A stretch of DNA of 52,748 nucleotides from Escherichia phage LF82-19, in the sequence record PV660457; one strand, written 5' to 3'. The position numbers were made by a program, and so were the translations under genes. Below, one piece after another: positions 1 to 52,748 of the stretch; position 1 is the first letter of the stretch; each line of letters starts with the position of its first letter. A model generated the notes under the pieces. The model was not told the DNA's origin and ran no database searches. It saw nothing but the letters and a program-made list of their open reading frames with translations.

Positions 1-555
1 ATGTCACATGAAGAAGATAACGAATGGAAAAGCACGAGCGGCGCAGCCAATGAAGCGATCAAGAAAGGGAACTTTAAAGCACTGTATAACAAGAAGTATG
101 GCGACTTGTTTACGGTTTCAAAAAACCATGCTTTCACGCCTGAGCAGCTTTTTGATATGGCTGTTAAATACTTCACCTGGGCGGAAGAGAACGCGCTTAA
201 AGCAGCGGAAACGGCAAGCTTTCAGGGCATTGTGACTGAGAACCTCGTGCATAAGGTGCGCGTATTCACCCTTAACGGACTGTGCCTATTTTGCGGAATC
301 ACAGCCAACGCGATCCACAACTGGCGCAAGCAACCCGGATTTGGTGACGTGGTGGAGTTTATCGACAACGTGATCTATGAGCAGAAATTCCAGCTTGCGG
401 CTAACGGCATCATCAACGCCAGCTTTATTGGCAAGGAGATCGGCATTGATAAAGCGCCGGAAATTAACGTTGCAGCGACGGCGGCGGCTTCTGTTTCAGC
501 GCCAACCACTGAGGAAGTTAAAGACGCGGTGCGTGATATCCTGGGGGAATTATGA
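1..555 (+). CDS. terminase small subunit (putative)
   Basis: 184 aa ORF directly upstream of and overlapping (ATGA) the large terminase; size and position typical of TerS; no diagnostic motif. Confidence 0.5.
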   Translation: MSHEEDNEWKSTSGAANEAIKKGNFKALYNKKYGDLFTVSKNHAFTPEQLFDMAVKYFTWAEENALKAAETASFQGIVTENLVHKVRVFTLNGLCLFCGITANAIHNWRKQPGFGDVVEFIDNVIYEQKFQLAANGIINASFIGKEIGIDKAPEINVAATAAASVSAPTTEEVKDAVRDILGEL

Positions 556-2141
556 TCCAGTGGGAAGACTTGACGGCGGCGCATAAAGCCGCCATTAAAG
601 CGATGAGTGAAACATCGTTCGAGAAGATGCTGCGGATCTGGTTCCAGTTATGCCAGGCGCAGAAGTTCCAAAGCAACTGGCACTTTACCTATCTGTGCTG
701 GAAGGTTGAGCAGATCATCAAGGGTGAGGCTCAAAACGTGATATTCAACATCACGCCAGGATCGGGCAAAACTGAAATCTTCTCTATCCACATGCCTGTT
801 TACGGAATGCTGAAGAGTCCGAAGGTTAGAAACCTAAACCTTTCGTTTTCCGATAGCCTCGTGAAAGATAACGGCATTCGCACGCGTGAGATCATCGGCT
901 CTGACGAATTCCAGGAGCTATGGCCTTGCAAGATGGCGAAAGCCAGCGGTGGAGATATCACGGCGCTAAACGACAACCAGAAAGCGTGGCTTACGCTAAC
1001 CTCCCGCGCCATTGGTGGGCAGGTAACGGGTAAGCGTGGCGGTTACATGGATGATCCTAACAAGCCGTGGGAGTTTACCGGGATGTTGACGCTTGACGAC
1101 CCGGATAAGCCAAAGGATATGTTTTCCGCGATCAAGCGCAAGGCCGCGCACACCTTGCTGAAGAACACCGTGCGATCGCGGCGAATGACAGACCGCACGC
1201 CATGTGTTGTGGTTCAGCAGCGCCTACACGTCAACGATTCAACATGGTTCTTGATGAATGGCGGTATGGGCGGTATGAAGTTTGAGCAGGTTATTATTCC
1301 GGCTCTCGTAACTGAGGAATATAGAGACACGCTTCCTGACTGGTTGAAAGAAGAGTTTGACAATGACGTTTTATCGTCCGATCCGGTCTATATTGACGGC
1401 GTGGCGCATTACTCGTTTTGGCCTGCAAAGGAAAGCGCTGAAAGCCTGTTAGCTTTGCGCGAAGCTGATCTCTACACGTTTGAATCTCAGTACCAGCAGA
1501 AGCCGATCGCGCTTGGTGGTAACGCGTTTAAAGCGGAATGGTTCAAGTATTACGGAGAAAGCGAGAAAGCTGATTTTCCAGTGCCTGACCGCTTCGAATA
1601 CCTGTTTACAACGGCTGATACCGCTCAGAAGGCCGAAGAGATTCACGACTTTTCAGTTTTCGTGTTGTGGGGTAAATATCGCGATCGAATCTATTTCGTC
1701 GATGGGATTCGCGGGAAGTGGGAGGCACCTGATCTGGAAAAGGCCGCGCTGGGCTTCTACAACGAGTCATTCCTGAAGGCTAAGAAGATGAAGGTTGCGA
1801 TCAGAAAGGTTTACATCGAAGACAAGGCGAGCGGAACGGGATTGATTCAGTCGATTAACAAGAAATTGCCGATCGACATTACGCCAGTTCAGCGAAACAC
1901 GGATAAGGTAACGCGAGCTATGGATGCAGCGCCGATACTCAAGTCCGGGCGAGTTGTATTCCCTGATGATCACCCAATGCTTACAGAAATGGAGGCGGAG
2001 TTGGTGGGGTTCACCTTCGACGATAGTCACCCTCACGACGATATAGTTGATAACGTGGTTGACGCGGCAAACTTCGAAATGAACTTGCTTGATGATCCGG
2101 TAGAGCGCATGAAACGCTTAGCAGGAATGAAGAAACAGTGA
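552..2141 (+). CDS. terL: terminase large subunit
   Basis: 529 aa; ATPase N-terminal half and C-terminal RNaseH-like nuclease region with acidic residues; followed by portal. Confidence 0.85.
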   Translation: MIQWEDLTAAHKAAIKAMSETSFEKMLRIWFQLCQAQKFQSNWHFTYLCWKVEQIIKGEAQNVIFNITPGSGKTEIFSIHMPVYGMLKSPKVRNLNLSFSDSLVKDNGIRTREIIGSDEFQELWPCKMAKASGGDITALNDNQKAWLTLTSRAIGGQVTGKRGGYMDDPNKPWEFTGMLTLDDPDKPKDMFSAIKRKAAHTLLKNTVRSRRMTDRTPCVVVQQRLHVNDSTWFLMNGGMGGMKFEQVIIPALVTEEYRDTLPDWLKEEFDNDVLSSDPVYIDGVAHYSFWPAKESAESLLALREADLYTFESQYQQKPIALGGNAFKAEWFKYYGESEKADFPVPDRFEYLFTTADTAQKAEEIHDFSVFVLWGKYRDRIYFVDGIRGKWEAPDLEKAALGFYNESFLKAKKMKVAIRKVYIEDKASGTGLIQSINKKLPIDITPVQRNTDKVTRAMDAAPILKSGRVVFPDDHPMLTEMEAELVGFTFDDSHPHDDIVDNVVDAANFEMNLLDDPVERMKRLAGMKKQ

Positions 2142-2148
2142 TATAATC

Positions 2149-2177
2149 AGCCGGGCTAATAACCCGGCTTTTTTATT
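2149..2177 (+). terminator. hairpin plus T-run between terL and portal
   Basis: AGCCGGG-ctaataa-CCCGGCT followed by TTTTTTATT. Confidence 0.45.
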
Positions 2178-5967: not shown

Positions 5968-5974
5968 TTAAACA

Positions 5975-7044: not shown

Positions 7045-7050
7045 GACGAA

Positions 7051-8245: not shown

Positions 8246-8681
8246 TTACCAGGTGCGCAAGTTTCACGGTGATATTTCTCGTTGGATTCTGCGCACTCAG
8301 AAGGGGCTAGAGGACGTGGTTAGAGAGTTCGTTAAATCGGTTCACGCGGAGCTTGTAAAGACCTCACCAGTAGATACAGGGCGATTCCGAGCTAACTGGC
8401 AGATAACCTATAACCACGTACCGCTATACGCTCTCAATGAGTACGACAAAACCGGAGAGAAAACGATCGCGTCAGGGGTTCGAATTGCAAACGCGTTGCC
8501 GTTGGGCAGAGGTGGCGCGGTTACTTCAATCTACTTTTCGAACATGTTAATCTATGCCAACGCGCTCGAATACGGGCATTCACGGCAAGCGCCAGCGGGT
8601 GTGCTGGGGTTGGTGGCGATACGCTTACGATCTCACATGGCGGCGGCGATTAAACAATCAAGGATTAAAAATGGTTTATGA
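8238..8681 (+). CDS. neck / tail component (putative)
   Basis: internal ATG at 8238 overlapping previous stop; track ORF 8163 extension rejected. Confidence 0.4.
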   Translation: MSNYQVRKFHGDISRWILRTQKGLEDVVREFVKSVHAELVKTSPVDTGRFRANWQITYNHVPLYALNEYDKTGEKTIASGVRIANALPLGRGGAVTSIYFSNMLIYANALEYGHSRQAPAGVLGLVAIRLRSHMAAAIKQSRIKNGL

Positions 8682-9081
8682 TGATCTGGATATGTCAGAG
8701 GCGGCGCGCTCCGCTCTCTTCGCTGAGTTCAGGCCGCGATTCGCCATCATGGCTGAAAACGTGGATTTCACAGAGCCTAGCCAGGGTCAGACCTGGCTAA
8801 AGTTCGACTACATCCCGGCTGATAAGATCTACCGCACTATTGACCGCAAGTGCATTTCTTTGCTTGCCATGGTTCAGATCGGCATAGTGTTTGCGCCGGG
8901 CAAGGGCATGACTGAGGCGCGCACCATTGCGAAAGAGATTGCAAACTTTTTCAGTGATGGTAAAATTCTCAACGTGGGTTATGTTTATGAGGGCGCAAGT
9001 TCTAAACCCGTACAGAAATCAGAGCGCGGCTGGATGTTACCAGTACGCTTCACAATGCGATACGATGAAAAGGAGCAGTAA
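8671..9081 (+). CDS. tail completion / terminator protein (putative)
   Basis: ATG 8671 overlapping previous gene end; immediately precedes major tail protein. Confidence 0.4.
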   Translation: MVYDDLDMSEAARSALFAEFRPRFAIMAENVDFTEPSQGQTWLKFDYIPADKIYRTIDRKCISLLAMVQIGIVFAPGKGMTEARTIAKEIANFFSDGKILNVGYVYEGASSKPVQKSERGWMLPVRFTMRYDEKEQ

Positions 9082-10503: not shown

Positions 10504-13203
10504 ATGACCGAACAGTATGCAGGTTTGAGCCTTGAAGTTGACGTGTCGCAGGTTGACAAAGCTGCGGTTTCGCTTGAGAACTTCGCGAAGGCGAATGACA
10601 CGGCTGCGAAGGGTGTTGATAAGTTTATCAACCAGGAGCAGGTTGCACGCCAGAAACAAAAGGAATACGTAGAGGAGATCAAGAAGGGTAACGCCGAGTT
10701 TGCCAGGATCGAGAAGGTCATTGACCCGGCAGTGTCAAAGATCAAGCAATTGCAAACCGCTGGCGCAGATCTCGAAAAGCTATGGCAGAAAGGGCTTGTG
10801 CCTGATGAGCGCTTTTTCCAGTTGGGTGACGTTATCGACACTCAGATCGGGGCGCTGAAGAAGTCACAGCAAGCACTGACTGAGGAAGGCCGCGCAGCAC
10901 TGGAAAACGCGAAGGCGAAAGCACAGGCGCAACGTGACGGCGATCGCTTCATCAAGCAGTTGCAGGAGCAAGCCAACGCCGCAACCATGACCAAGACCGA
11001 GATCTTAGAAATGAAGGCCGCGCAGTTGGGCGTTACGGCACAGGCCGCGCCACTGATCGCAGCCATGAACAAGCAGACTAGCGCCATCAATCTTGCTGGC
11101 ATTTCGGCTGGGCAGTACAACCAGGCAATGCGAATGCTTCCGGCGCAGATCACGGACGTTGTGACTTCATTAGCATCAGGGATGCCTGTTTGGCTTGTTG
11201 CCATCCAGCAGGGCGGCCAGATCAAGGACAGCTTCGGCGGAATCGGTAACACGTTCAAAGTGTTGTTGTCTTACCTCAATCCGCTTAATGTTGGCATTGG
11301 CCTGACGGTTGGCGCGCTGGGCGCTCTCATCTTCCAGGTTGTGAAGGCTCGCGGAGAGATTACGGCAGCGCAGAAAGCCGTTGCAGAGTCATTGGGCATG
11401 ACTGGTGATTACGCCGATAAGCTGGCGTTAAACCTTCGCAACATTGCTGACGCTTCAAAGCAGACAGCAGAGGAGGCGGCTAAGGCTTTCATTTCCACGA
11501 AAGATAAAGCGGCAGAGGCACAGGCCAAACTGATTGATGTTGGTTTCAGCTACGACGAAGCGCGCCAGATGGTTGAGAAGTACAAAGGATCGTCTGATTT
11601 CACTTTCCTTAACACGGAGATTGAGCGCCATCGCCTTGAGGTGCTGGGCATTAAAGATGCGTGGAGTGATGCGGCTGAGGAAGTCAAGAACTACTACACC
11701 GGGGCGAAGGAAGGCAAGCAAAGCGTAGCGCTGGGCGGCGCGATTGACCCTATCATCAAGATCATCGAGCGTGCCAAAAATCTCCAGGTTGAGACTAACA
11801 AGGCGCGAATCGAAGGTAACAAGATCGTAAATGATACCGTCAACCTCGTTGAAAAAGAGTACCTTGCAAGCAACCGCGTTGCTGCGGCTAAGAAGGCTCT
11901 TACTGAGGCCGAGAAGTACGCGAAAACAATCGCGGCATCCGGCAACGCTGAGGCGATCAAGCAGTCGAAAGAGCTGATTGAGATTCGCAAGAAGGAGATC
12001 AAGCAAGCTGAGGAGGCTGAAGCGAAGAAGAACAAGCCTAAGAAAGTTTCACAGGGCGCAATTGTTCGATCGCCTGAAGAGCAGCTTGACAAAGAGCTTT
12101 ACACGCTCAAAGCTCAGTTGAAGGTGTTGCAGGAGCATCAAAACATCGGTGAGCGCATTTCAAGCCAGCGTAAATCATTGTGGAGCGTTGAGGCTCAGAT
12201 CTCAATCCTTCAGGAAGCGCAGAGTAAGCGCCGATTGTCGAATGAGGAAAAGGCGTTGCTGACGAGCCAGCAAAAGGTGCTGGCGATGGCTCAGGAGAAA
12301 GCGGAGTTAGGCGATCAGATTTTGGCTCAAGAGAAGTTAAACGCTCTTAATGACAAATCGCTTGCCTTTGTGATCCAAATGAACCAGTCAGCACAAGCCC
12401 TCAACGAAACACGCGCCATGGGCAACCGTGAGGCAGAGCGTGCGGCGGCGAAGGCTAAGATCACCTCTGATTACATGGCGCAGGGTGGCGGCAAGGATGA
12501 TGCAGCGTTGCAGAAGATGATCAAAGCACAGGACGACTACTACGCGGCTGAAGATGCGAAGCGTGCAGACTGGTTAGCCGGGGCGAAAAACGCCTTTGCC
12601 AACTACGGTGACGCGGCAACGGATATGTACTCCAACGTTGGGCAGATTGCCAGCAGCGCGCTTAACGGAATGTCAGATATGATGGCGGAGTTTCTCATGA
12701 CGGGCAAAGCCAACTTTGAGGACTTCGCGAAGAGCATCATCAGCCAGATCATTAAGATGATCACACAGATGGTAATCTTTAACAGCATTTCCGGCATGAT
12801 GGGCGGCGGCGGTTGGTCATTCGCTGGTGCTGGTTTCTCTGGTGGTGGCTACACTGGCGACGGCGGGAAGTATCAGCCAGCCGGAACGGTTCACCGTGGC
12901 GAGTTTGTCATGACCAAGGAAGCAACAAAGAGGATTGGCGTTGACAACCTGTATCGACTGATGCGAGGCTATGCTAACGGCGGTTATGTTGGCGGCTCAT
13001 CTTCCGGCACTGGTGCTGGCGGTAGCTTCGGCGGCGGATTCTCTCTGACGATTGGCAGCATCCCGGTTGACGTGAACAACGGAGGCGATCCGAAAGGCAT
13101 GGAGCAGGGAATTAAGGCAATCTTCCAGCAGATGATTCAGGAGTCATGCGCGCAGGGAGGAGAGGTTTACAACTTCATTCAACAGAAAACAGGAGCGGGT
13201 TAA
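10504..13203 (+). CDS. tail tape measure protein
   Basis: 899 aa, long coiled-coil Ala/Lys/Glu/Gln-rich region, C-terminal Gly-rich segment, position after chaperones. Confidence 0.85.
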   Translation: MTEQYAGLSLEVDVSQVDKAAVSLENFAKANDTAAKGVDKFINQEQVARQKQKEYVEEIKKGNAEFARIEKVIDPAVSKIKQLQTAGADLEKLWQKGLVPDERFFQLGDVIDTQIGALKKSQQALTEEGRAALENAKAKAQAQRDGDRFIKQLQEQANAATMTKTEILEMKAAQLGVTAQAAPLIAAMNKQTSAINLAGISAGQYNQAMRMLPAQITDVVTSLASGMPVWLVAIQQGGQIKDSFGGIGNTFKVLLSYLNPLNVGIGLTVGALGALIFQVVKARGEITAAQKAVAESLGMTGDYADKLALNLRNIADASKQTAEEAAKAFISTKDKAAEAQAKLIDVGFSYDEARQMVEKYKGSSDFTFLNTEIERHRLEVLGIKDAWSDAAEEVKNYYTGAKEGKQSVALGGAIDPIIKIIERAKNLQVETNKARIEGNKIVNDTVNLVEKEYLASNRVAAAKKALTEAEKYAKTIAASGNAEAIKQSKELIEIRKKEIKQAEEAEAKKNKPKKVSQGAIVRSPEEQLDKELYTLKAQLKVLQEHQNIGERISSQRKSLWSVEAQISILQEAQSKRRLSNEEKALLTSQQKVLAMAQEKAELGDQILAQEKLNALNDKSLAFVIQMNQSAQALNETRAMGNREAERAAAKAKITSDYMAQGGGKDDAALQKMIKAQDDYYAAEDAKRADWLAGAKNAFANYGDAATDMYSNVGQIASSALNGMSDMMAEFLMTGKANFEDFAKSIISQIIKMITQMVIFNSISGMMGGGGWSFAGAGFSGGGYTGDGGKYQPAGTVHRGEFVMTKEATKRIGVDNLYRLMRGYANGGYVGGSSSGTGAGGSFGGGFSLTIGSIPVDVNNGGDPKGMEQGIKAIFQQMIQESCAQGGEVYNFIQQKTGAG

Positions 13204-22232: not shown

Positions 22233-22274
22233 TAGCACTAAAAGCTAAACAAAAGCGGTGATGTTTGGTATAAT
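22233..22274 (+). promoter_or_regulatory. palindrome variant TAGCA-N5-AGCTA plus hairpin with TATAAT
   Basis: TAA-TAGCACTAAAAGCTA, 21 nt, TATAAT inside hairpin AGCGGTGA ... TCACCGCT. Confidence 0.45.
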
Positions 22275-22311
22275 CACCGCTCAATCAAACGAACGAAAAG
22301 AGGCATAAGCA

Positions 22312-23509: not shown

Positions 23510-23535
23510 AAAGGAGCCTTTCGGCTCCTTTTTTA
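23510..23535. terminator. bidirectional terminator between ssb and tail fiber
   Basis: AGGAGCC-tttc-GGCTCCT then TTTTTTATTT. Confidence 0.55.
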
Positions 23536-25752
23536 TTTCAGCAATAACGACTCAAGTTTAGCAAGGCGCTCTTCCATTTCCTCCATTCTGTTACCCATGT
23601 AAACCATAGCACAGGCCATATCAGTAAGCATGACGTTTGAATCAAGAGCTAGCGTATCGTCCTTAAATCCAGTCTCGATCTGCCTGGCAACGTACTCCTC
23701 ACCATTCTCGTTGACTCCGATAACATCTTCAAAGATCGGAGCGCCAGGGACTACTTTCACATACTGACTATCAACTTTATTCAAGTCCTGAGCAATCAGA
23801 CCGAATCTCTGTGTGTCAGATCCCTTATACTTGAACATGGTTGGGAGCCACTGCATTACGCGATCATAGCTCTCCTTTCCTTCGGTGTATTTGATATCCC
23901 ACTTAAGATCCCGGTCAGACGTTGGCGCTTTCTGGAATGTATACCCCCCATCCCATCCTCCACCCTGACCCCATGAGATAATATCTGATGATGGTGCATG
24001 GAATTCAAATCCGCGATGGTACGCACCATCACCAAGCATCTTAATTACTGCGCGAGGCCATCCGTTGTTCCCGCTAGAAATCATACCAAGAGAGGTATTC
24101 ATTCGATACCCGCCAGTTGATGTGGTTGCCCCTGAGATCAATGAAGCATATCCGGCATCATTACCCGTTACATCACCAGCAAAGAACGTACTCCCCATGT
24201 AATCATTTGGCTGCGCCCAACCTCCTTGAGTTAACTTACCAAGAAACCCCCTTGGAGAAGATATGTGACCGCCGTATGAGTTTATGAATTTAAACTCCTT
24301 CCAGTCACTTCCTTGGTTGTTCACTCCGATCTTGAAGTGATCAATATCAGTGCCACTACCGCGAACCCCCCCAATCTGCCAGTAACCAGAGTACCAGTTA
24401 CCTTGAACCAGGTTAACCCAACTATTAACAGAGCCATCACCAGCAGCGTTTTGAATCAGGATGTTTTTGTTTCCGCCACTCTGAGTTGAAACAACGATCG
24501 ATTTACCCTGCTTTGCCTCTACGTTTCCGTTTGTTGCAACCAGAGCGCCGCCGCTAATCGTTCCGACGGCTGTCAGCGATGCAACTCCGGTAATGTTCCC
24601 CGCCTCATCAAACTGATAGTAGTTCCCCTTTCCTCCAGCCGTGTTTGCCGTGTGAATCGTTGTCTTTACAACGCCGCCTTGTAGTTCATTGTAAAATCTT
24701 GAGTTTGATTGCAGCGTTGCGCCGTCAGCAGAAAGCCTTTTACTCTCAATCAGCCCCCCACTAGTTGCTGAGCCAAGTGTTGTAGCCTCCACGCCTCCAA
24801 ATCTCACCGCTTGACCCGAGCCGATACCAAGATTGTTTCTTGCTCCGTCAGCAGTTGTTGATCCAGTGCCACCAGATCCGATAGGGATCGGGATTACATT
24901 TCCGTTACTATCCTGCCACTGGAAAATCCCATCATCGCCAATCGTCAGCCTTTTTGTTCTATCTGGCGTGCTAATGTAGTTACGCGTTCCAATGTGGCGC
25001 AGCCAGTCAAGATCAAGGTTCGTCCTCGCGGCTTGTACGTCAGTAAGATCAGATAGGTTATTTGCCTTCTTTAGCTGTTCGTCAGGGTTAGCCGTTGCTG
25101 CGCGGTCTGCTTCAGCCTTGGCTCGTGCTGCATCGTCACGAGCGGCGGCGGCAGATTGCCCGGCGCTGGTTTCGCTGTTTGCTGCATTCGTCTCGCTTAC
25201 CCTGGCGGCATCCTTGCTGGCTCCGGCTTGGGTTGCGGCAACTTCGGCGGCAACGCGTTGCTGATAAGCTTGCTGGTTCTGGCTTCCGGCCTCGCTTGCA
25301 CTTTGTGCGGCGGCGTTCTTGCTTGCCTCAGCTTCGTTTGCGTTAACTTCAGTACGATCAGCATCAACGCGAACGGCAGACTGAAGATCTTTCAGCTCTT
25401 GCAGGTTAAAGTTCTTGAAGAAATCCATAGCCTCCTCGATCACAGTTTCCTTGCTTTGGTAGTAGCGCAGAGTTTCAGCCACATCTTGAGCAAGGCCATC
25501 AACAGTGATTGAGTCATGCAGCAGGATTACATAGTTCGTACCATCCGGCACAACTGCATCATCCGTTTGGATCGCTCGCATTTCCGTGTCACTCACGATC
25601 GCGGAAATAGTAACCAGCGTTAGTGGTTGAGTTAAAAACACCATCGTTGCCCCAACGCGAATCAGAGACAGCTTGTCTTGCCATTTCGTATCAACGCCAG
25701 TTACAACGCCGTTAGCGGCCAATCCCGCCGTTCCTCTACGATAAATCGCCAT
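23533..25752 (-). CDS. tail fiber with C-terminal peptidase S74 intramolecular chaperone domain
   Basis: C-terminus DRDLKWDIKY ... GLIAQDL ... LAKLESLL typical of the autocleaving chaperone domain of fibers/endosialidases; Gly/Ser/Thr-rich beta-like middle; start at ATG 25752. Confidence 0.75.
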   Translation of the reverse strand: MAIYRRGTAGLAANGVVTGVDTKWQDKLSLIRVGATMVFLTQPLTLVTISAIVSDTEMRAIQTDDAVVPDGTNYVILLHDSITVDGLAQDVAETLRYYQSKETVIEEAMDFFKNFNLQELKDLQSAVRVDADRTEVNANEAEASKNAAAQSASEAGSQNQQAYQQRVAAEVAATQAGASKDAARVSETNAANSETSAGQSAAAARDDAARAKAEADRAATANPDEQLKKANNLSDLTDVQAARTNLDLDWLRHIGTRNYISTPDRTKRLTIGDDGIFQWQDSNGNVIPIPIGSGGTGSTTADGARNNLGIGSGQAVRFGGVEATTLGSATSGGLIESKRLSADGATLQSNSRFYNELQGGVVKTTIHTANTAGGKGNYYQFDEAGNITGVASLTAVGTISGGALVATNGNVEAKQGKSIVVSTQSGGNKNILIQNAAGDGSVNSWVNLVQGNWYSGYWQIGGVRGSGTDIDHFKIGVNNQGSDWKEFKFINSYGGHISSPRGFLGKLTQGGWAQPNDYMGSTFFAGDVTGNDAGYASLISGATTSTGGYRMNTSLGMISSGNNGWPRAVIKMLGDGAYHRGFEFHAPSSDIISWGQGGGWDGGYTFQKAPTSDRDLKWDIKYTEGKESYDRVMQWLPTMFKYKGSDTQRFGLIAQDLNKVDSQYVKVVPGAPIFEDVIGVNENGEEYVARQIETGFKDDTLALDSNVMLTDMACAMVYMGNRMEEMEERLAKLESLLLK

Positions 25753-25775
25753 TGTCAACACCTCTTGTTAGTAAA

Positions 25776-25796: not shown

Positions 25797-25805
25797 ATTA
25801 TATCA
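25797..25805 (-). promoter_or_regulatory. extended -10 element (TGATATAAT) for tail fiber gene
   Basis: TGnTATAAT on minus strand about 45 nt upstream of ATG. Confidence 0.4.
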
Positions 25806-25817
25806 GGCATTCAGGCA

Positions 25818-25841
25818 ATAAAAAACCCTCCGAAGAGGGTT
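25818..25841 (-). terminator. rho-independent terminator after primase
   Basis: on minus: AACCCTC-ttcg-GAGGGTT then TTTTTTATT. Confidence 0.5.
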
Positions 25842-26842: not shown

Positions 26843-27301
26843 TCATTGATTAGCTTTTCGTGCTTTCAGTGTTTTCCAGGATGGTTGCTCCGGCTTGGTT
26901 TCTAACTCTTCCTTTCTCACCACGCGCAGCATGTGACGCTTTTTGCATCGGACTGTTAGCGGCTTGCCGTTGCCGTCGAATGACAGATCAGGGCGGCACC
27001 ACGACGCGCGGAAACCTCCGCCATTTCGTTTATATGCGTTGTGCGCCAGTTGCGCGCCTCGCGCTGAAATCATGCCGCGTTGCCGCCACTCATAAACAAC
27101 CTGAAGCGAAACGCGCAATTCTTTCGCCAGCTTTGCAGGTGAGCCGTAGAATTCAAGGATGGTATCTAATCTAGCCTTAAGCCCGGCCTTTACTTCGTCT
27201 CGTAAAACATAGTAACCTACTGGACGTTTTCGGCGCTTAGCGTCACTTCCGCGCTTCGTTCCATTGTTCCCATTAAGCGTGCGTTTATCTACGGTTTCCA
27301 T
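26843..27301 (-). CDS. HTH DNA-binding protein (Cro/YdaS-like, putative regulator)
   Basis: AKLAKELRVSLQVVYEWRQRG HTH-like segment; basic N- and C-termini; divergent from helicase promoter. Confidence 0.5.
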   Translation of the reverse strand: METVDKRTLNGNNGTKRGSDAKRRKRPVGYYVLRDEVKAGLKARLDTILEFYGSPAKLAKELRVSLQVVYEWRQRGMISARGAQLAHNAYKRNGGGFRASWCRPDLSFDGNGKPLTVRCKKRHMLRVVRKEELETKPEQPSWKTLKARKANQ

Positions 27302-27393: not shown

Positions 27394-29463
27394 ATGAAAA
27401 TCAAGAGCATCAAGAAGCAGATTGAGGAGTTAGGCGAGGATAAGATCGCAGAGCTTCAAAAGAAATTCACTTTTGGTGACATTGTTCCTTATGCGTATCA
27501 GTGCGTCATGTACGACGAGATCGCAAAGCGCATTTCCGCATACAAACACCCATTCTTTGTTAAGGCTTCCGTGTCGGCTGGCAAAACAGTTGGGTTTGCC
27601 ATGGTGGCGGCGCGGTGCAGGGAAATGACTAGCGCAAAGTTTCCAAAGGGTTTATCAATGGCAATCCTCGCTCGCCAGGGTGAGATCGTATCTCAGGATA
27701 GCCAGGAGCTAACAAACTTCGGCGTGCCGAATAGCGTTTACTGCGCCGGGCTTGGTACTAAATCTGCATACTTCCCGATCGTCGTTGGCTCTGAGGGTTC
27801 AGTTGCAAACGGGCTTTTCAAGGCTCTCGGAGACTTCGCGCCAATGGTTGTCGGCATCGACGAATGTCACCAGGTGGATTGGGAAGACCTTGCAGACTCG
27901 ATCGAGAAGAACGAAAGCTATGAGGAAATGAGCAGACCAAAGGATGAGGCTTACATGATCAATGGCGAAGTAGTCGATCGCGGGTTGAAGATATCAAGCC
28001 TCATGGAAACCCTGGGAACAGTTGCACCAGGTGCCGGGCGCTCTCAGTACACGATAATCATTCGTGAGTTGCAGCGTCGATGCCTGGAAGTTCACGGAAA
28101 GGAACTACGCATATTCGGCATGACTGGTTCAGAGTTTCGCGGCACAACTCCGATCCTTGTTGAGAATATGAAACTCAAAGGCTTCTGGCGCGAGCAGGTA
28201 ACGAACATTGATACGAACTACCTCATTGAGTTTGGCTCGGTTGTTCCAACCGTCTTCGGCTCAACTGGCGGGTTAGGCTACGATCTGGAAGAGTTCAAAG
28301 CGTCAAGCGAAGATGGAACAAAAGACTTTGACGCGAAAGTAATGAAGAAGATGGAGGAGAAGATCCACAAGGATGCTTCCATGACGGCAAGAATTATGGC
28401 GGCGGTTGTGGAGGAAGCGAAGAAGCGAAACGGCGTTCTAATTACTTGCTCAGGGCAACGACACTGTAAAGAGGCGGCTAGTTACCTGCCTGAAGGCTCA
28501 ACGTATGCGATCATTACTGAGAAGACCGGAACGAAACAGCGCCAGCAAATCCTTGATGATGCAAACCAGGGAAAGATAAAGTACATCTTCCAGGTTGTGG
28601 CATTGACGACTGGCGTTAACGTGCCGTTTTGGGATTTCTCCGTGATACTCCGTAAGATTGGCTCTCTCACATTGCTGATACAGTTGCTTGGGCGCGGAAT
28701 GCGACTTTTAAAGGCGTGGCAAATCGCAATGGGGATGGTGAAGACAGATCACCTTGTTTGGGATTTTGCCGGAACTATGGACGAATTAGGCCAACTTTAC
28801 TTTGACCCGATTCTTGAGGAAGCTCAGTATCAACGCCGTTTCGACTCGAAGAAGGAGCCTAAAAAATGCCCTATTTGCGGTCATGAAAACAGTTTCTTTG
28901 CTCGTCGCTGTATCAGTCGGGATTTGAACGGAAACAGATGTGAGTATTTCTGGAAGTCGAGAACGTGCGAGGATCAGGTTGACGATCGAACCGGGAAAGT
29001 TATTGTGAAGGGTTGCGGTGTTCAAAATGATGTTGTAGCTCGAATCTGTAGGGGTTGTGATGCTAGCCTAACAGATCCCAACGCCAACTTAACCGGGAAG
29101 GCGTACACAAAAAACGACTGGTGCCAGGTTCTCAGCTTTGAGGTTGGGCTTACCAAAAACCAGACCGGGATCATTTATAAATATCGCTTGCGTGATATGC
29201 TCGGAGAGGAGTTTAACGCATACGAGAAGTTTTTCCCTGAGTCTCAGGCTCAGGTATGCCACACGATATGGAAAACAAAAGGCGTGCTTCCACACGTTCA
29301 CGATTCGAAAGTGGCAAAGCTTATGGCAGCATACAGGAGCGCGCGCCTGATCTTACAAAACGCGCACCACATCGCGCACCCGGTACGGGTTACGCATCGC
29401 AAAAACGCAAAGGGCGAAGATATCATTTCGCGCAAGGACTTCGGTCTTAATGAGGGCTTATGA
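27394..29463 (+). CDS. DExH-box SF2 helicase with C-terminal Cys-rich zinc-ribbon cluster
   Basis: Walker A SVSAGKT, DECH box, helicase C-terminal region, then CPICGH ... C ... C ... GCG ... CRGC cluster. Confidence 0.75.
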   Translation: MKIKSIKKQIEELGEDKIAELQKKFTFGDIVPYAYQCVMYDEIAKRISAYKHPFFVKASVSAGKTVGFAMVAARCREMTSAKFPKGLSMAILARQGEIVSQDSQELTNFGVPNSVYCAGLGTKSAYFPIVVGSEGSVANGLFKALGDFAPMVVGIDECHQVDWEDLADSIEKNESYEEMSRPKDEAYMINGEVVDRGLKISSLMETLGTVAPGAGRSQYTIIIRELQRRCLEVHGKELRIFGMTGSEFRGTTPILVENMKLKGFWREQVTNIDTNYLIEFGSVVPTVFGSTGGLGYDLEEFKASSEDGTKDFDAKVMKKMEEKIHKDASMTARIMAAVVEEAKKRNGVLITCSGQRHCKEAASYLPEGSTYAIITEKTGTKQRQQILDDANQGKIKYIFQVVALTTGVNVPFWDFSVILRKIGSLTLLIQLLGRGMRLLKAWQIAMGMVKTDHLVWDFAGTMDELGQLYFDPILEEAQYQRRFDSKKEPKKCPICGHENSFFARRCISRDLNGNRCEYFWKSRTCEDQVDDRTGKVIVKGCGVQNDVVARICRGCDASLTDPNANLTGKAYTKNDWCQVLSFEVGLTKNQTGIIYKYRLRDMLGEEFNAYEKFFPESQAQVCHTIWKTKGVLPHVHDSKVAKLMAAYRSARLILQNAHHIAHPVRVTHRKNAKGEDIISRKDFGLNEGL

Positions 29464-37132: not shown

Positions 37133-37175
37133 ATAATAACAAAACCCGCCGAAGCGGGTTTAACAAAAAGTGCTA
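37133..37175 (-). promoter_or_regulatory. palindrome plus terminator-like hairpin plus -10 TATTAT
   Basis: on minus: TAGCACTTTTTGTTA-AACCCGCTTCGGCGGGTTTTG-TTATTAT; same 40-nt element as 48965-49007. Confidence 0.5.
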
Positions 37176-41127: not shown

Positions 41128-41367
41128 TTACCCCTTGATAGTCAGGCCGAAAGCCTCAACCAGAATGTCACTTGCAGCGTGCATTTCGCAACGAGCAACC
41201 TCACGGTCATCAAAATTCTCTACAGCGTACATCACAACACCACGAGCCTGATCAGCTTCTACAAACTGGTTGCAACGGTCATTCAGTTCTTTCGCTAACT
41301 CAGCGTCAAAATCAGCCGTTACGCCTTCGATAAACTCCGCCTCGGTGATGATGTTCATGTAGCGCAT
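41128..41367 (-). CDS. hypothetical protein (first gene of minus-strand early operon)
   Basis: 79 aa, RBS GAGGAA. Confidence 0.45.
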   Translation of the reverse strand: MRYMNIITEAEFIEGVTADFDAELAKELNDRCNQFVEADQARGVVMYAVENFDDREVARCEMHAASDILVEAFGLTIKG

Positions 41368-41398
41368 TGCTGTTTCCTCAGTTCGTTTCGTTGAGATA

Positions 41399-41441
41399 AC
41401 TATAGCCGAAACATCCTGAGTGGTTTTAGCAAAAAGTGCTA
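41399..41441 (-). promoter_or_regulatory. palindrome TAGCA-N5-TGCTA plus -10 TATAGT
   Basis: 22-nt gap; leftmost promoter of the minus-strand early operon. Confidence 0.5.
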
Positions 41442-41562
41442 TTGATTCGATTTATCCAATTATTCCATTATTCCAACTATTCTGGAATATTCCTGAATAA
41501 CCGAATATCTGGAATAGTCAAAATGACTATGGCTCTCCGTTCGTTTTAGCGAACAAACGTTC

Positions 41563-41582
41563 GATGTGATGTGATGTGATGT
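41563..41582. repeat. (GATGT)x4 tandem repeat
   Basis: GATGTGATGTGATGTGATGT in divergent control region. Confidence 0.6.
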
Positions 41583-42015
41583 GAATGAGGGTGAGGAGGC
41601 GATCAGATCTGATCCCGAAACTTTTTCCCTCACCGCACGATTTGCTAATGAATTGTCGTGCCTGTAGTTGTATGTTGTGTTTTACGTTTTCCGTGGAAAT
41701 CGGTACGCGCTACTACGCGGAATAACAATGTTATGCTTTATATATAGATATATAAGTATATATAAAATAAAGGTTTTTTATTATATATATTATCTAATTT
41801 CATAACACTTTATAACGTGTTGTGTTTGTTCCGCCGGACGCGGAGTGATTGATATGTTTCGCGGCCTATTTATGCCTATATTGTGAAATATGGGTAGGGG
41901 GATATATACCCCTCCGAAATCCGCAACAAACGCTTAATACGCACTACAACCCAGCAGGAATGCACCATGTAGAGGAGATTTTGTTGATAATGGCAATAAT
42001 CGACACAAATTAATC

Positions 42016-42044
42016 TTGACTACAATTAAGCTTTTCCGCATTAT
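42016..42044 (+). promoter_or_regulatory. strong sigma70-like early promoter
   Basis: TTGACT - 17 nt - CATTAT, about 30 nt upstream of first plus-strand early gene. Confidence 0.55.
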
Positions 42045-42076
42045 GGCGGCTCAACCAATCAGATGAGGTATCACCC

Positions 42077-42574
42077 ATGACACTTGCAGAAGTATTGCGC
42101 TATATGGCAACCGAAGCCATGAAATCCCCTGAGAAGGAGATCACCGTGCCAGTGTGGCAAATCCTGGTTCAGGCACACAATCTGGACGCTGACGAGCGCC
42201 GCGCATTACAGGCAGACTTTGACAAGCGCGTTGAGCTGGTAGCAAGTGAGAAGCGCCTGACCAACTCGTACATCACCAACACCTGCAACCGCATGAAGGA
42301 AATGATCGCGGCTGACCTATCCATCACCACAAAGCGTGGCGAGGACGACGGCGGGAATCGGACGCTCACCCTGGGCGTTAAGCCCGGCGCAATGAAGCTG
42401 GGCAGTCGGAGCAAGTCGGAGAACATCGCGGCGAAGAATGCAGTGCAGGATTTTGCCCGGCGCATCATGGAGATTGCCCCAGCACTAGATAGCCTGAGCG
42501 ATGATCGCGTTGCTGGTGCCGTCGATGGCGTGCGCATGATGAAAGAGCTGATTGCCAGGGAGGCCGGACTATGA
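42077..42574 (+). CDS. hypothetical protein (first plus-strand early gene)
   Basis: 165 aa. Confidence 0.5.
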   Translation: MTLAEVLRYMATEAMKSPEKEITVPVWQILVQAHNLDADERRALQADFDKRVELVASEKRLTNSYITNTCNRMKEMIAADLSITTKRGEDDGGNRTLTLGVKPGAMKLGSRSKSENIAAKNAVQDFARRIMEIAPALDSLSDDRVAGAVDGVRMMKELIAREAGL

Positions 42575-48355: not shown

Positions 48356-48963
48356 TGGCAACTATCATCATTCTGAATGCGCCGCCGCGCGCCGGGAAAG
48401 ACACGATCGCGAAAATCATCGACGAGCAATACGGCTTGCCAGTTGTGAGCTTCAAAACTCCGATGTTCAACATTGCTCGCGGCATCTTGGGCGAAGCGGA
48501 TTTTAAAGAGTTCATGGCGGTTTACGAAACAGACCGCAAGGACACACAGCCGTTAAGTATTCTGCATGGCAGCACTTGCCGCGAGTTTATGATCTGGATT
48601 AGCGAATCCGTGATTAAGCCTCATTTCGGCAAGAAGCATTTCGGCTGGCTTATGGCTGATTTGCTCAGCGAAATGGAGGATGATGTTGATCTCACAATTT
48701 GCAGCGATGGCGGGTTCCCGGATGAGGTAGAGGCGTTGATTGACTTCGGGCACCGTGTCAAGCTGGTTCGTATGCACCGTGAAGGCTTCGACTTCTCGAA
48801 AGATAGCCGTGACTACATCTACCTTTCCGAAGAGTACAAGAGCAAGCCTGGTGTTGTTGAGTTCGATCTGACATTGCAGGACGGTTGCCCTAATCTGGCT
48901 GCTGAGACTATCGCGTCATTGTTCATTGCCCATCATAAACCAGATAACGAGATCCCTTGGTAA
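48355..48963 (+). CDS. P-loop kinase (polynucleotide or nucleotide kinase-like)
   Basis: Walker A-like NAPPRAGKDT; ATGA-coupled to the phosphatase. Confidence 0.55.
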   Translation: MATIIILNAPPRAGKDTIAKIIDEQYGLPVVSFKTPMFNIARGILGEADFKEFMAVYETDRKDTQPLSILHGSTCREFMIWISESVIKPHFGKKHFGWLMADLLSEMEDDVDLTICSDGGFPDEVEALIDFGHRVKLVRMHREGFDFSKDSRDYIYLSEEYKSKPGVVEFDLTLQDGCPNLAAETIASLFIAHHKPDNEIPW

Positions 48964-48964
48964 A

Positions 48965-49007
48965 TAGCACTTTTTGTTAAACCCGCTTCGGCGGGTTTTG
49001 TTATTCT
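48965..49007 (+). promoter_or_regulatory. palindrome plus terminator-like hairpin plus -10 TATTCT
   Basis: TAGCACTTTTTGTTA-AACCCGCTTCGGCGGGTTTTG-TTATTCT; inverted duplicate of 37133-37175. Confidence 0.5.
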
Positions 49008-51780: not shown

Positions 51781-51986
51781 TGTTTAAGCATCTGCCAAAG
51801 AAAGGCGAAATCATTCGCTGTGATTCAGTAGTTGGAGCCGCGCCGTTTATGGTTGGCGTTGAGTACACCGTTGAACATGTTGATCGCAAAGTTGGTCACA
51901 TCTACGTTTACGGTGACGAAGGCAACCTCGAGGCGATCGACTACCCGCAAGACGCTGTACACGGAAAGTTTTCAAAAGTTGATTGA
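51780..51986 (+). CDS. small protein, possible MKVKC-family relative
   Basis: IIRCDSVVGAAPFMVGVEY segment. Confidence 0.4.
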   Translation: MFKHLPKKGEIIRCDSVVGAAPFMVGVEYTVEHVDRKVGHIYVYGDEGNLEAIDYPQDAVHGKFSKVD

Positions 51987-52150
51987 CGACACCTTCGCTG
52001 AGTGGTAAATTAAAAAGCGTAGACAGAAGAGGCGCTTAGAGCGCAACGGGCATCACGTTTGATGCAACTTAGTTTACAGCGTCATTGATGGCGCTTTCAT
52101 TCGGTGCATAGTGGTAAGCACGCCGTAGACCCGTAAGCGGCACAAATTCA

Positions 52151-52434: not shown

Positions 52435-52668
52435 ATGCTGAATTCAATTTTGTTTATCGTCCTGGGTGTGATTATTGGCGTTATCGTCGTTGTTGCGTGG
52501 GCTGGCCTGTGGTCGCGAAAGCTACTGGCAAAGAACCAATTCGCCTCAGCGCGCTTCGATACGAAATCAAAAGAATGGCGCATTTGCGGCAAGTACGCAA
52601 AGATCGCACAGGAGTTGGTAGACATTCGCGAAGGACGAAAGCCTGGCGCGATTAAGTACATCGACTGA
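52435..52668 (+). CDS. small membrane protein
   Basis: N-terminal TM helix LFIVLGVIIGVIVVVAWAGLW; 77 aa. Confidence 0.4.
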   Translation: MLNSILFIVLGVIIGVIVVVAWAGLWSRKLLAKNQFASARFDTKSKEWRICGKYAKIAQELVDIREGRKPGAIKYID

Positions 52669-52674
52669 TAAACA

Positions 52675-52697
52675 ACCCGCTTCGGCGGGTTTTTTTG
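52675..52697 (+). terminator. rho-independent terminator
   Basis: ACCCGC-ttcg-GCGGGT then TTTTTTTG; third copy of this hairpin. Confidence 0.5.
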
Positions 52698-52708
52698 CGT
52701 CTGCAATC

Positions 52709-52717
52709 TGGTATAAT
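52709..52717 (+). promoter_or_regulatory. extended -10 promoter (TGgTATAAT) reading toward window end and terS
   Basis: followed by RBS AGGAGG at 52734-52739, 9 nt before the window end, which abuts the ATG at position 1. Confidence 0.45.
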
Positions 52718-52748
52718 CGAACCTCATCAACAAAGGAGGGAAGGAACA

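Follow-up and report, generated by a model that had tools for sequence, protein, structure and literature searches.

The Escherichia phage LF82-19 record is opened at the terS start codon, between the packaging genes and their conserved upstream control region

In the record of phage T1 (NC_005833), small ORFs and a rho-independent terminator annotated at 8322-8344 are followed by terS at 8396, by terL and by another terminator. This record was opened at the mapped pac end and has an annotated terminal repeat at 1-2800, with terS lying 8.4 kb inside it, and no promoter is annotated in front of terS. PMC11447400 describes the T1 late region, after Roberts et al. 2004, as terminator-flanked modules ("transcripton") with RpoD promoters; according to the same source, neither an RNA polymerase nor a sigma factor is encoded by T1-like phages, and T1 transcription relies on host RpoD, a reliance that T1 shares with the genome considered here. 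For phage TLS, pac-initiated headful packaging has been shown experimentally, with restriction mapping of a submolar pac fragment. The TLS record begins with about 590 nt of non-coding DNA, which is followed by small ORFs, and terS is found at 8792.

The closest ICTV-classified relative of the genome considered here is vB_EcoS_NBD2 (NBD2; Vilniusvirus, KX130668), with an overall identity of about 75 %. A tRNA-Ser gene, two small ORFs, a cassette with TGGTATAAT, terS and terL occupy 9.4-12.1 kb in the interior of the NBD2 record, and the portal gene follows, to 13.5 kb. Short units consisting of a stem-loop and a promoter are also familiar from T4-type phages, where PeSL (promoter-early stem-loop) cassettes sit at gene boundaries and are better conserved than the flanking genes. 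PeSLs are present in many copies, carry early promoters and lie in hyperplastic regions, with evidence of recombination-mediated shuffling. The cassette described below is likewise a short stem-loop and promoter unit at a boundary, although the likeness is one of analogy only. Unlike PeSLs, only two such cassettes were found per genome, and they stand ahead of conserved late genes.

The whole stretch of LF82-19 DNA that was analysed (PV660457), referred to here as the window, is 52,748 bp long, has a GC content of 49.59 % and carries tRNA-Ser as its only tRNA gene; the same length, GC content and tRNA gene number are given for LF82-19 in Table 1 of PMC12509680. The window opens on the A of the terS start codon and reads, from this ATG, ATGTCACATGAA. 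Its last 80 nt read TGA TAAAC AACCCGC TTCG GCGGGTT TTTTT GCGTCTGCAATC TGGTATAAT CGAACCTCATCAACAA AGGAGG GAAGGAACA. An earlier note on this DNA had taken these two ends to mean that the window is a circularised or permuted assembly opened at the terS start, and probably the whole genome. The features on both sides of the join are listed in Table 1, together with the other elements that are discussed below.

Table 1. Features of the window at the join of its two ends and at related sites
Feature	Coordinates	Strand	Remarks
terS, small terminase, 184 aa, P22 gp3-like	1..555	+	phrog_606 E=1.9e-56; Pfam PF16677 GP3_package E=2.4e-14
terL, large terminase	552..2141	+	phrog_38 E=4.6e-105; Pfam Terminase_6C
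Terminator after terL, closing the terS-terL module	2149..2175	+	T1 homologue annotated at 10545-10573
Second cassette: terminator ACCCTC-TTCG-GAGGGT, T-run, TGATATAAT	25797..25841	-	conserved in T1
Divergent non-coding gap, predicted pac site and physical end	41367..42077		about 10.7-11.3 kb upstream of the join
Last ORF before the join, 77 aa, DUF7299 / phrog_5976	52435..52668	+	stop TGA at 52666-52668
Rho-independent terminator, AACCCGC-TTCG-GCGGGTT and run of seven T	52674..52696	+	terminator scan; hairpin 52674-52691, T-run 52690-52696
Extended -10, TGGTATAAT	52709..52717	+	-10 hexamer 52712-52717
Predicted transcription start zone of the terS-terL mRNA	52722..52726	+	usual 5-9 nt from -10 hexamer to +1
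Shine-Dalgarno AGGAGG	52734..52739	+	9 nt (GAAGGAACA), then ATG at position 1

Joined to its start, the end of the window yields an order of genes and a stretch of intergenic DNA that run uninterrupted in relatives whose records open elsewhere. The order of small ORF, terminator, -10, RBS and terS is contiguous and internal in all nine named relatives (T1, TLS, NBD2, KpV522, ESCO41, YP10S2, Phc, Henu7 and BananaBelafonte). For example, the intergenic DNA of NBD2 contains TGATAAACTAACCCGCTTCGGCGGGTTTTTTTACGTCTGCAATCTGGTATAAT...GGAGGGCGGAGCCATGTCAC, which is the end and the start of the window in one piece, and the NBD2 record opens in the divergent gap that corresponds to about 42.0 kb of the window. 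By tblastx, window position 1 corresponds to T1 position 8396 or so and window 52.5 kb to about T1 8.1 kb; the order of terminator, terS, terL and second terminator is the same as in T1, and after rotation the window is colinear with T1 over its entire length, with no break at the join. Small ORFs homologous to the last ORF before the join also sit before terS in NBD2, YP10S2, ESCO41 and LF82-10.

The published methods point the same way. The genomes of the LF82 phages were obtained as SPAdes contigs that were circularised by k-mer overlap trimming, and they were annotated using Pharokka with its dnaapler reorientation option (PMC12509680, which also gives the LF82-19 reads as BioProject PRJNA1263023, BioSample SAMN48508516). 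The libraries are of the Illumina DNA Prep (tagmentation) type, which blunts terminus signals. Because the gene order across the join is contiguous in relatives opened elsewhere, the opening of a circularised or permuted genome at terS is supported, and both this proposal and that of a whole genome have held up. We consider it very probable that the complete genome of a virulent T1-like coliphage (Drexlerviridae, related to NBD2) is represented in the window at unit length, and that it came out of assembly as a circle and was opened, by convention, at the first base of the terS ATG. Position 1 reflects an annotation landmark rather than a physical end. The explanation is an ordinary one: the genome has been published, linearisation of this sort is standard practice, and terminator/promoter modules of the T1 type are already known.

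The sibling records show the same opening point. All four of them (LF82-10, -11, -12 and -40) start at the same terS ATG, their terS is 100 % identical to that of the window, and the LF82-10 record is flagged as circular. The last 25 kb of the window matches LF82-10, LF82-11 and LF82-12 at 100 % identity, in one piece and up to their final base. The siblings are longer than the window, LF82-10 by 147 bp and LF82-11, -12 and -40 by 231 bp. This offset is already there at window position 27749, and so the responsible indel or indels lie within 1-27748, the structural and tail half, over which PV660453-55 and PV660462 were compared. We note that, by its documentation, dnaapler opens genomes at terL, yet the LF82 records open 551 bp earlier, at the terS ATG; the choice of the opening base is therefore not fully documented.

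In practice, the window is best handled as a circular map, in which the last 80 nt belong to terS as its control region and in which the coordinates say nothing about genome ends or packaging. Opening a genome at a start codon cuts promoters off their genes, and this is relevant to the annotation and engineering of the LF82 phages, which are candidates for phage therapy.

The terS gene is a genuine small-terminase gene. It is so annotated in the LF82 siblings, and its product has 62 % tblastx identity to ST54 of T1. Upstream of the ATG, the only alternative start in the same frame is a TTG within the T-run that lacks an RBS, and a TAA closes the frame. The start of terL overlaps the stop of terS, so the two genes belong to the same transcription unit. 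The NBD2 annotation differs at this point, as its terS begins at an ATG inside the promoter sequence TATAATG (KX130668 9986). A start homologous to that of the window, ATGTCAC after GGAGGG, lies 36 nt downstream, and so the annotated NBD2 terS is probably 12 codons too long.

The last 80 nt of the window had been described as containing a terminator hairpin, an extended -10 and a strong RBS, with no ORF. All of this proved correct, the extended -10 and the RBS to the base, and the region contains no credible ORF. The terminator was recovered by a terminator scan, which ranked it first among the sites of the last 2.7 kb. It has seven pairs, five of them G-C, and a four-nt UUCG loop, and the hairpin is predicted at -11.9 kcal/mol. 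The 89-nt region as a whole folds no better than its shuffles (z = -1.27), which is expected of a hairpin that is short and local, and the value adds no support. A nearly identical hairpin, (A)AACCCGCTTCGGCGGGTT(T), is found three times in the genome, at 48979-48998 (+), 52674-52691 (+) and 37142-37161 (-).

The word AGGAGG by itself shows no enrichment in the window, with 14 copies against 14.9 expected; what gives weight to the copy in front of terS is its position, 9 nt from a verified terS start. An SD of the GGAG type is found at the equivalent place in the relatives. At the extended -10, no recognisable -35 occurs at a spacing of 16-18 bp, where GTTTTT/TTTTTT of the terminator T-run is found instead. 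A standard -35/-10 promoter scan did not report the site, which is consistent with a promoter that lacks a -35 and is not evidence against it. The window contains six copies of the word TGNTATAAT, where 0.96 would be expected, and none of 100 shuffles reaches this number; each of the six is intergenic and has the orientation of the ORF that follows it. One further copy of TGGTATAAT, at 22266-22274, lies inside an 8-bp inverted repeat (GCGGTGAT at 22255-22262 and ATCACCGC at 22273-22280), which could be an operator or a structure that overlaps the -10.

The same arrangement of terminator, -10 and RBS is found upstream of terS in all ten comparison genomes, that is, in the nine named relatives and in one IMG/VR contig (L011). 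In each of them, a hairpin of -11 to -16 kcal/mol is followed by at least six T. The distance from the T-run to the -10 hexamer is 14-16 nt, except in Henu7, where it is 8 nt, and the hexamer is 24-34 nt from the terS ATG. The hexamer is TATAAT in eight of the genomes, TATACT in KpV522 and TAAAAT in T1, and it is preceded by TG in nine of the ten, TLS having AG. T1 has TGGTAAAAT where the window has TGGTATAAT, and its leader differs as well.

The stem of the terminator is also informative. The pairing is kept, through compensatory changes, in three different stems, AACCCGC/GCGGGTT, GCCCCGC/GCGGGGT and AAGCATCC/GGGTGCTT, which are at the same position and each of which is followed by a T-run of at least six. 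In Henu7, BananaBelafonte and ESCO41, the stem sequence is changed and the pairing is kept. These stems were compared by eye after each had been folded, and the comparison covers 10-11 genomes and the three stem types.

Other records give a similar picture. With the joined sequence as query, blastn matched 445 phage records; among the 60 matches listed, those to Klebsiella (Webervirus-type) records cover nothing but the cassette (query 77-176, about 80 % identity), and in most cases they lie in the interior of the record. An IMG/VR scan with a 17-nt promoter block found only five contigs, two of which presumably are the NBD2 and ESCO41 genomes. Another (L010) was set aside as an unrelated chance match within apparent coding sequence. 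The scan thus yielded only two new cassettes, and in both the order upstream of terS is contiguous.

The degree of conservation is higher than that of the surrounding DNA. A 44-nt core that runs from the terminator stem through the -10 (52674-52717) has 98 % identity to NBD2 and Phc, 93 % to KpV522 and YP10S2, 89 % to TLS, 86 % to T1 and 70 % to ESCO41, whose stem differs. Identities of 42-73 % are seen for the flanking ORFs and the terS coding DNA, compared with 86-98 % for the core (70 % in ESCO41). Within the core lies the spacer YCTGCAAT, which is dispensable for recognition by sigma-70. It has been tempting to ask whether the cassette is more than a terminator and a promoter, e.g., a site for a phage-encoded regulator that times the packaging genes or, as has been proposed for PeSLs, a recombination linker between the early and packaging modules, but we consider this rather unlikely. 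A homologue of ST23, an annotated transcriptional regulator of T1, is encoded at about 26843-27301 (-). A cassette that is conserved across genera would serve as a ready-made promoter/terminator part for T1-like phages, and it opens no new question.

Taken at face value, these elements suggest how the boundary would work, the cut at the terS ATG having parted terS from its own control region in the last 80 nt. First, the terminator would halt transcription coming from the small ORFs and tRNA-Ser of the rightward block. Host sigma-70 RNA polymerase would then restart at the -35-less TGGTATAAT, 15 nt past the T-run, with transcripts predicted to begin in the start zone given in Table 1. The mRNA would have a short leader, predicted at about 23-27 nt, that carries AGGAGG ahead of the terS ATG, and it would span terS and terL and end at the terminator that follows terL. 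The site is best read as a conserved extended -10 promoter of the sigma-70 type ahead of the packaging genes, one whose activity is predicted from its sequence and conservation. Because the site has no -35, and because the literature searched (with a loose query) contained no transcription-start mapping for Drexlerviridae, both activity and timing are given here as predictions.

Similar patterns occur elsewhere in the window. For example, a terminator at 5974 is followed by TTGACC-16-TATTAT, and a terminator at 7048 is followed by TTGACA-18-TATATT. The combination of a terminator with an extended -10 was found only twice, before terS-terL and before the tail fibre. The second of these cassettes is upstream of the tail-fibre gene at 23533-25761 (-), and its T1 counterpart shows a compensatory change in the stem and an identical 22-nt leader, TTAGCAATTCGTGCTATTTACT. 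This leader could form a small 5' hairpin, AGCA/TGCT.

The earlier note had called the promoter in front of terS a late one, and this label fits the fact that the two cassettes stand ahead of virion and packaging genes, which is not proof. It is possible, although we find it doubtful, that the promoter works and is not late. A near-consensus sigma-70 extended -10 would then be active from the moment of DNA entry, and any timing would have to be imposed by other means. Promoters of the extended -10 type are as a rule constitutive, and in principle no phage factor would be needed; as described above, the T1-like phages bring neither an RNA polymerase nor a sigma factor of their own. However, both cassettes that join a terminator to an extended -10 precede virion or packaging genes, and the spacer YCTGCAAT is conserved beyond the needs of sigma-70, which leaves room for a regulator. 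The T1 proteins of the region in question were classed as late in the classical literature, and this also counts against early firing.

Whether TGGTATAAT works as a promoter at all can be asked too. If it did not, terS would be expressed by read-through, e.g., from TTGACG-17-TAAATT at 51983-52011, and the conserved block would have another purpose. The missing -35, a transcript start that is only predicted and the AG that TLS has in place of TG would agree with this, as would a copy of TGATATAAT at 2139-2147, which implies that not every match need be a promoter. The latter copy overlaps the terL stop codon and precedes the terminator between terL and the portal gene, the reverse of the usual order, and so it may be non-functional or may give a very short terminated RNA. 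Nevertheless, we judge the absence of promoter function to be very unlikely, as the strong terminator directly upstream would block read-through, the -10 hexamer is retained, always close to the ATG and at a set spacing from the T-run, in all ten comparison genomes, the enriched word TGNTATAAT always points towards the next ORF, and promoters inside terminator-flanked modules are described in the T1 literature.

That the ends of the window are true physical ends, either those of a cos or short-DTR phage or those of a phage with pac at or in terS, as in P22 and Sf6, so that the join would be interrupted in the first headful of the virion, is scarcely credible: many phage records do start at real ends and terS is P22 gp3-like by Pfam, but the window ends share no terminal repeat, the cut falls exactly at a start codon and splits a conserved promoter and RBS from terS, the contigs were circularised and one sibling is flagged as circular (see above), the mapped ends of T1 and TLS are 8.4-8.8 kb upstream of terS, and terS has no P22-like pac motif. 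No exact repeat of 5-399 nt is shared by the two ends, which argues against a DTR, a leftover SPAdes overlap and a record of the cos type.

The P22 pac site is located inside gene 3. A search for the P22-type pac motif (AAGATTTATCTG, with at most two mismatches) found none in terS and two weak matches elsewhere in the window, where 4.7 were expected. A pac site inside terS was thus set aside as unsupported.

By homology with T1 and TLS, the physical end of LF82-19 is predicted instead in the large divergent gap, and packaging would start about 11 kb upstream of the join, near 41.4-42.1 kb. The T1 record end maps to this gap by colinearity (tblastx), and window 41425-41501 has short matches to both sides of that record end (T1 102-131 and 48752-48798). 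The T1 and TLS records both open with non-coding DNA ahead of rightward early genes; the T1 record has leftward genes at its other end, and so this non-coding stretch is the divergent gap. We consider the gap likely to be a pac and/or origin region. It is 710 nt long, between leftward and rightward early genes, and contains iteron-like TATTCC/GGAATA repeats at about 41450-41525, a tandem (GATGT)n run at about 41563-41584 and an AT-rich block at about 41737-41800.
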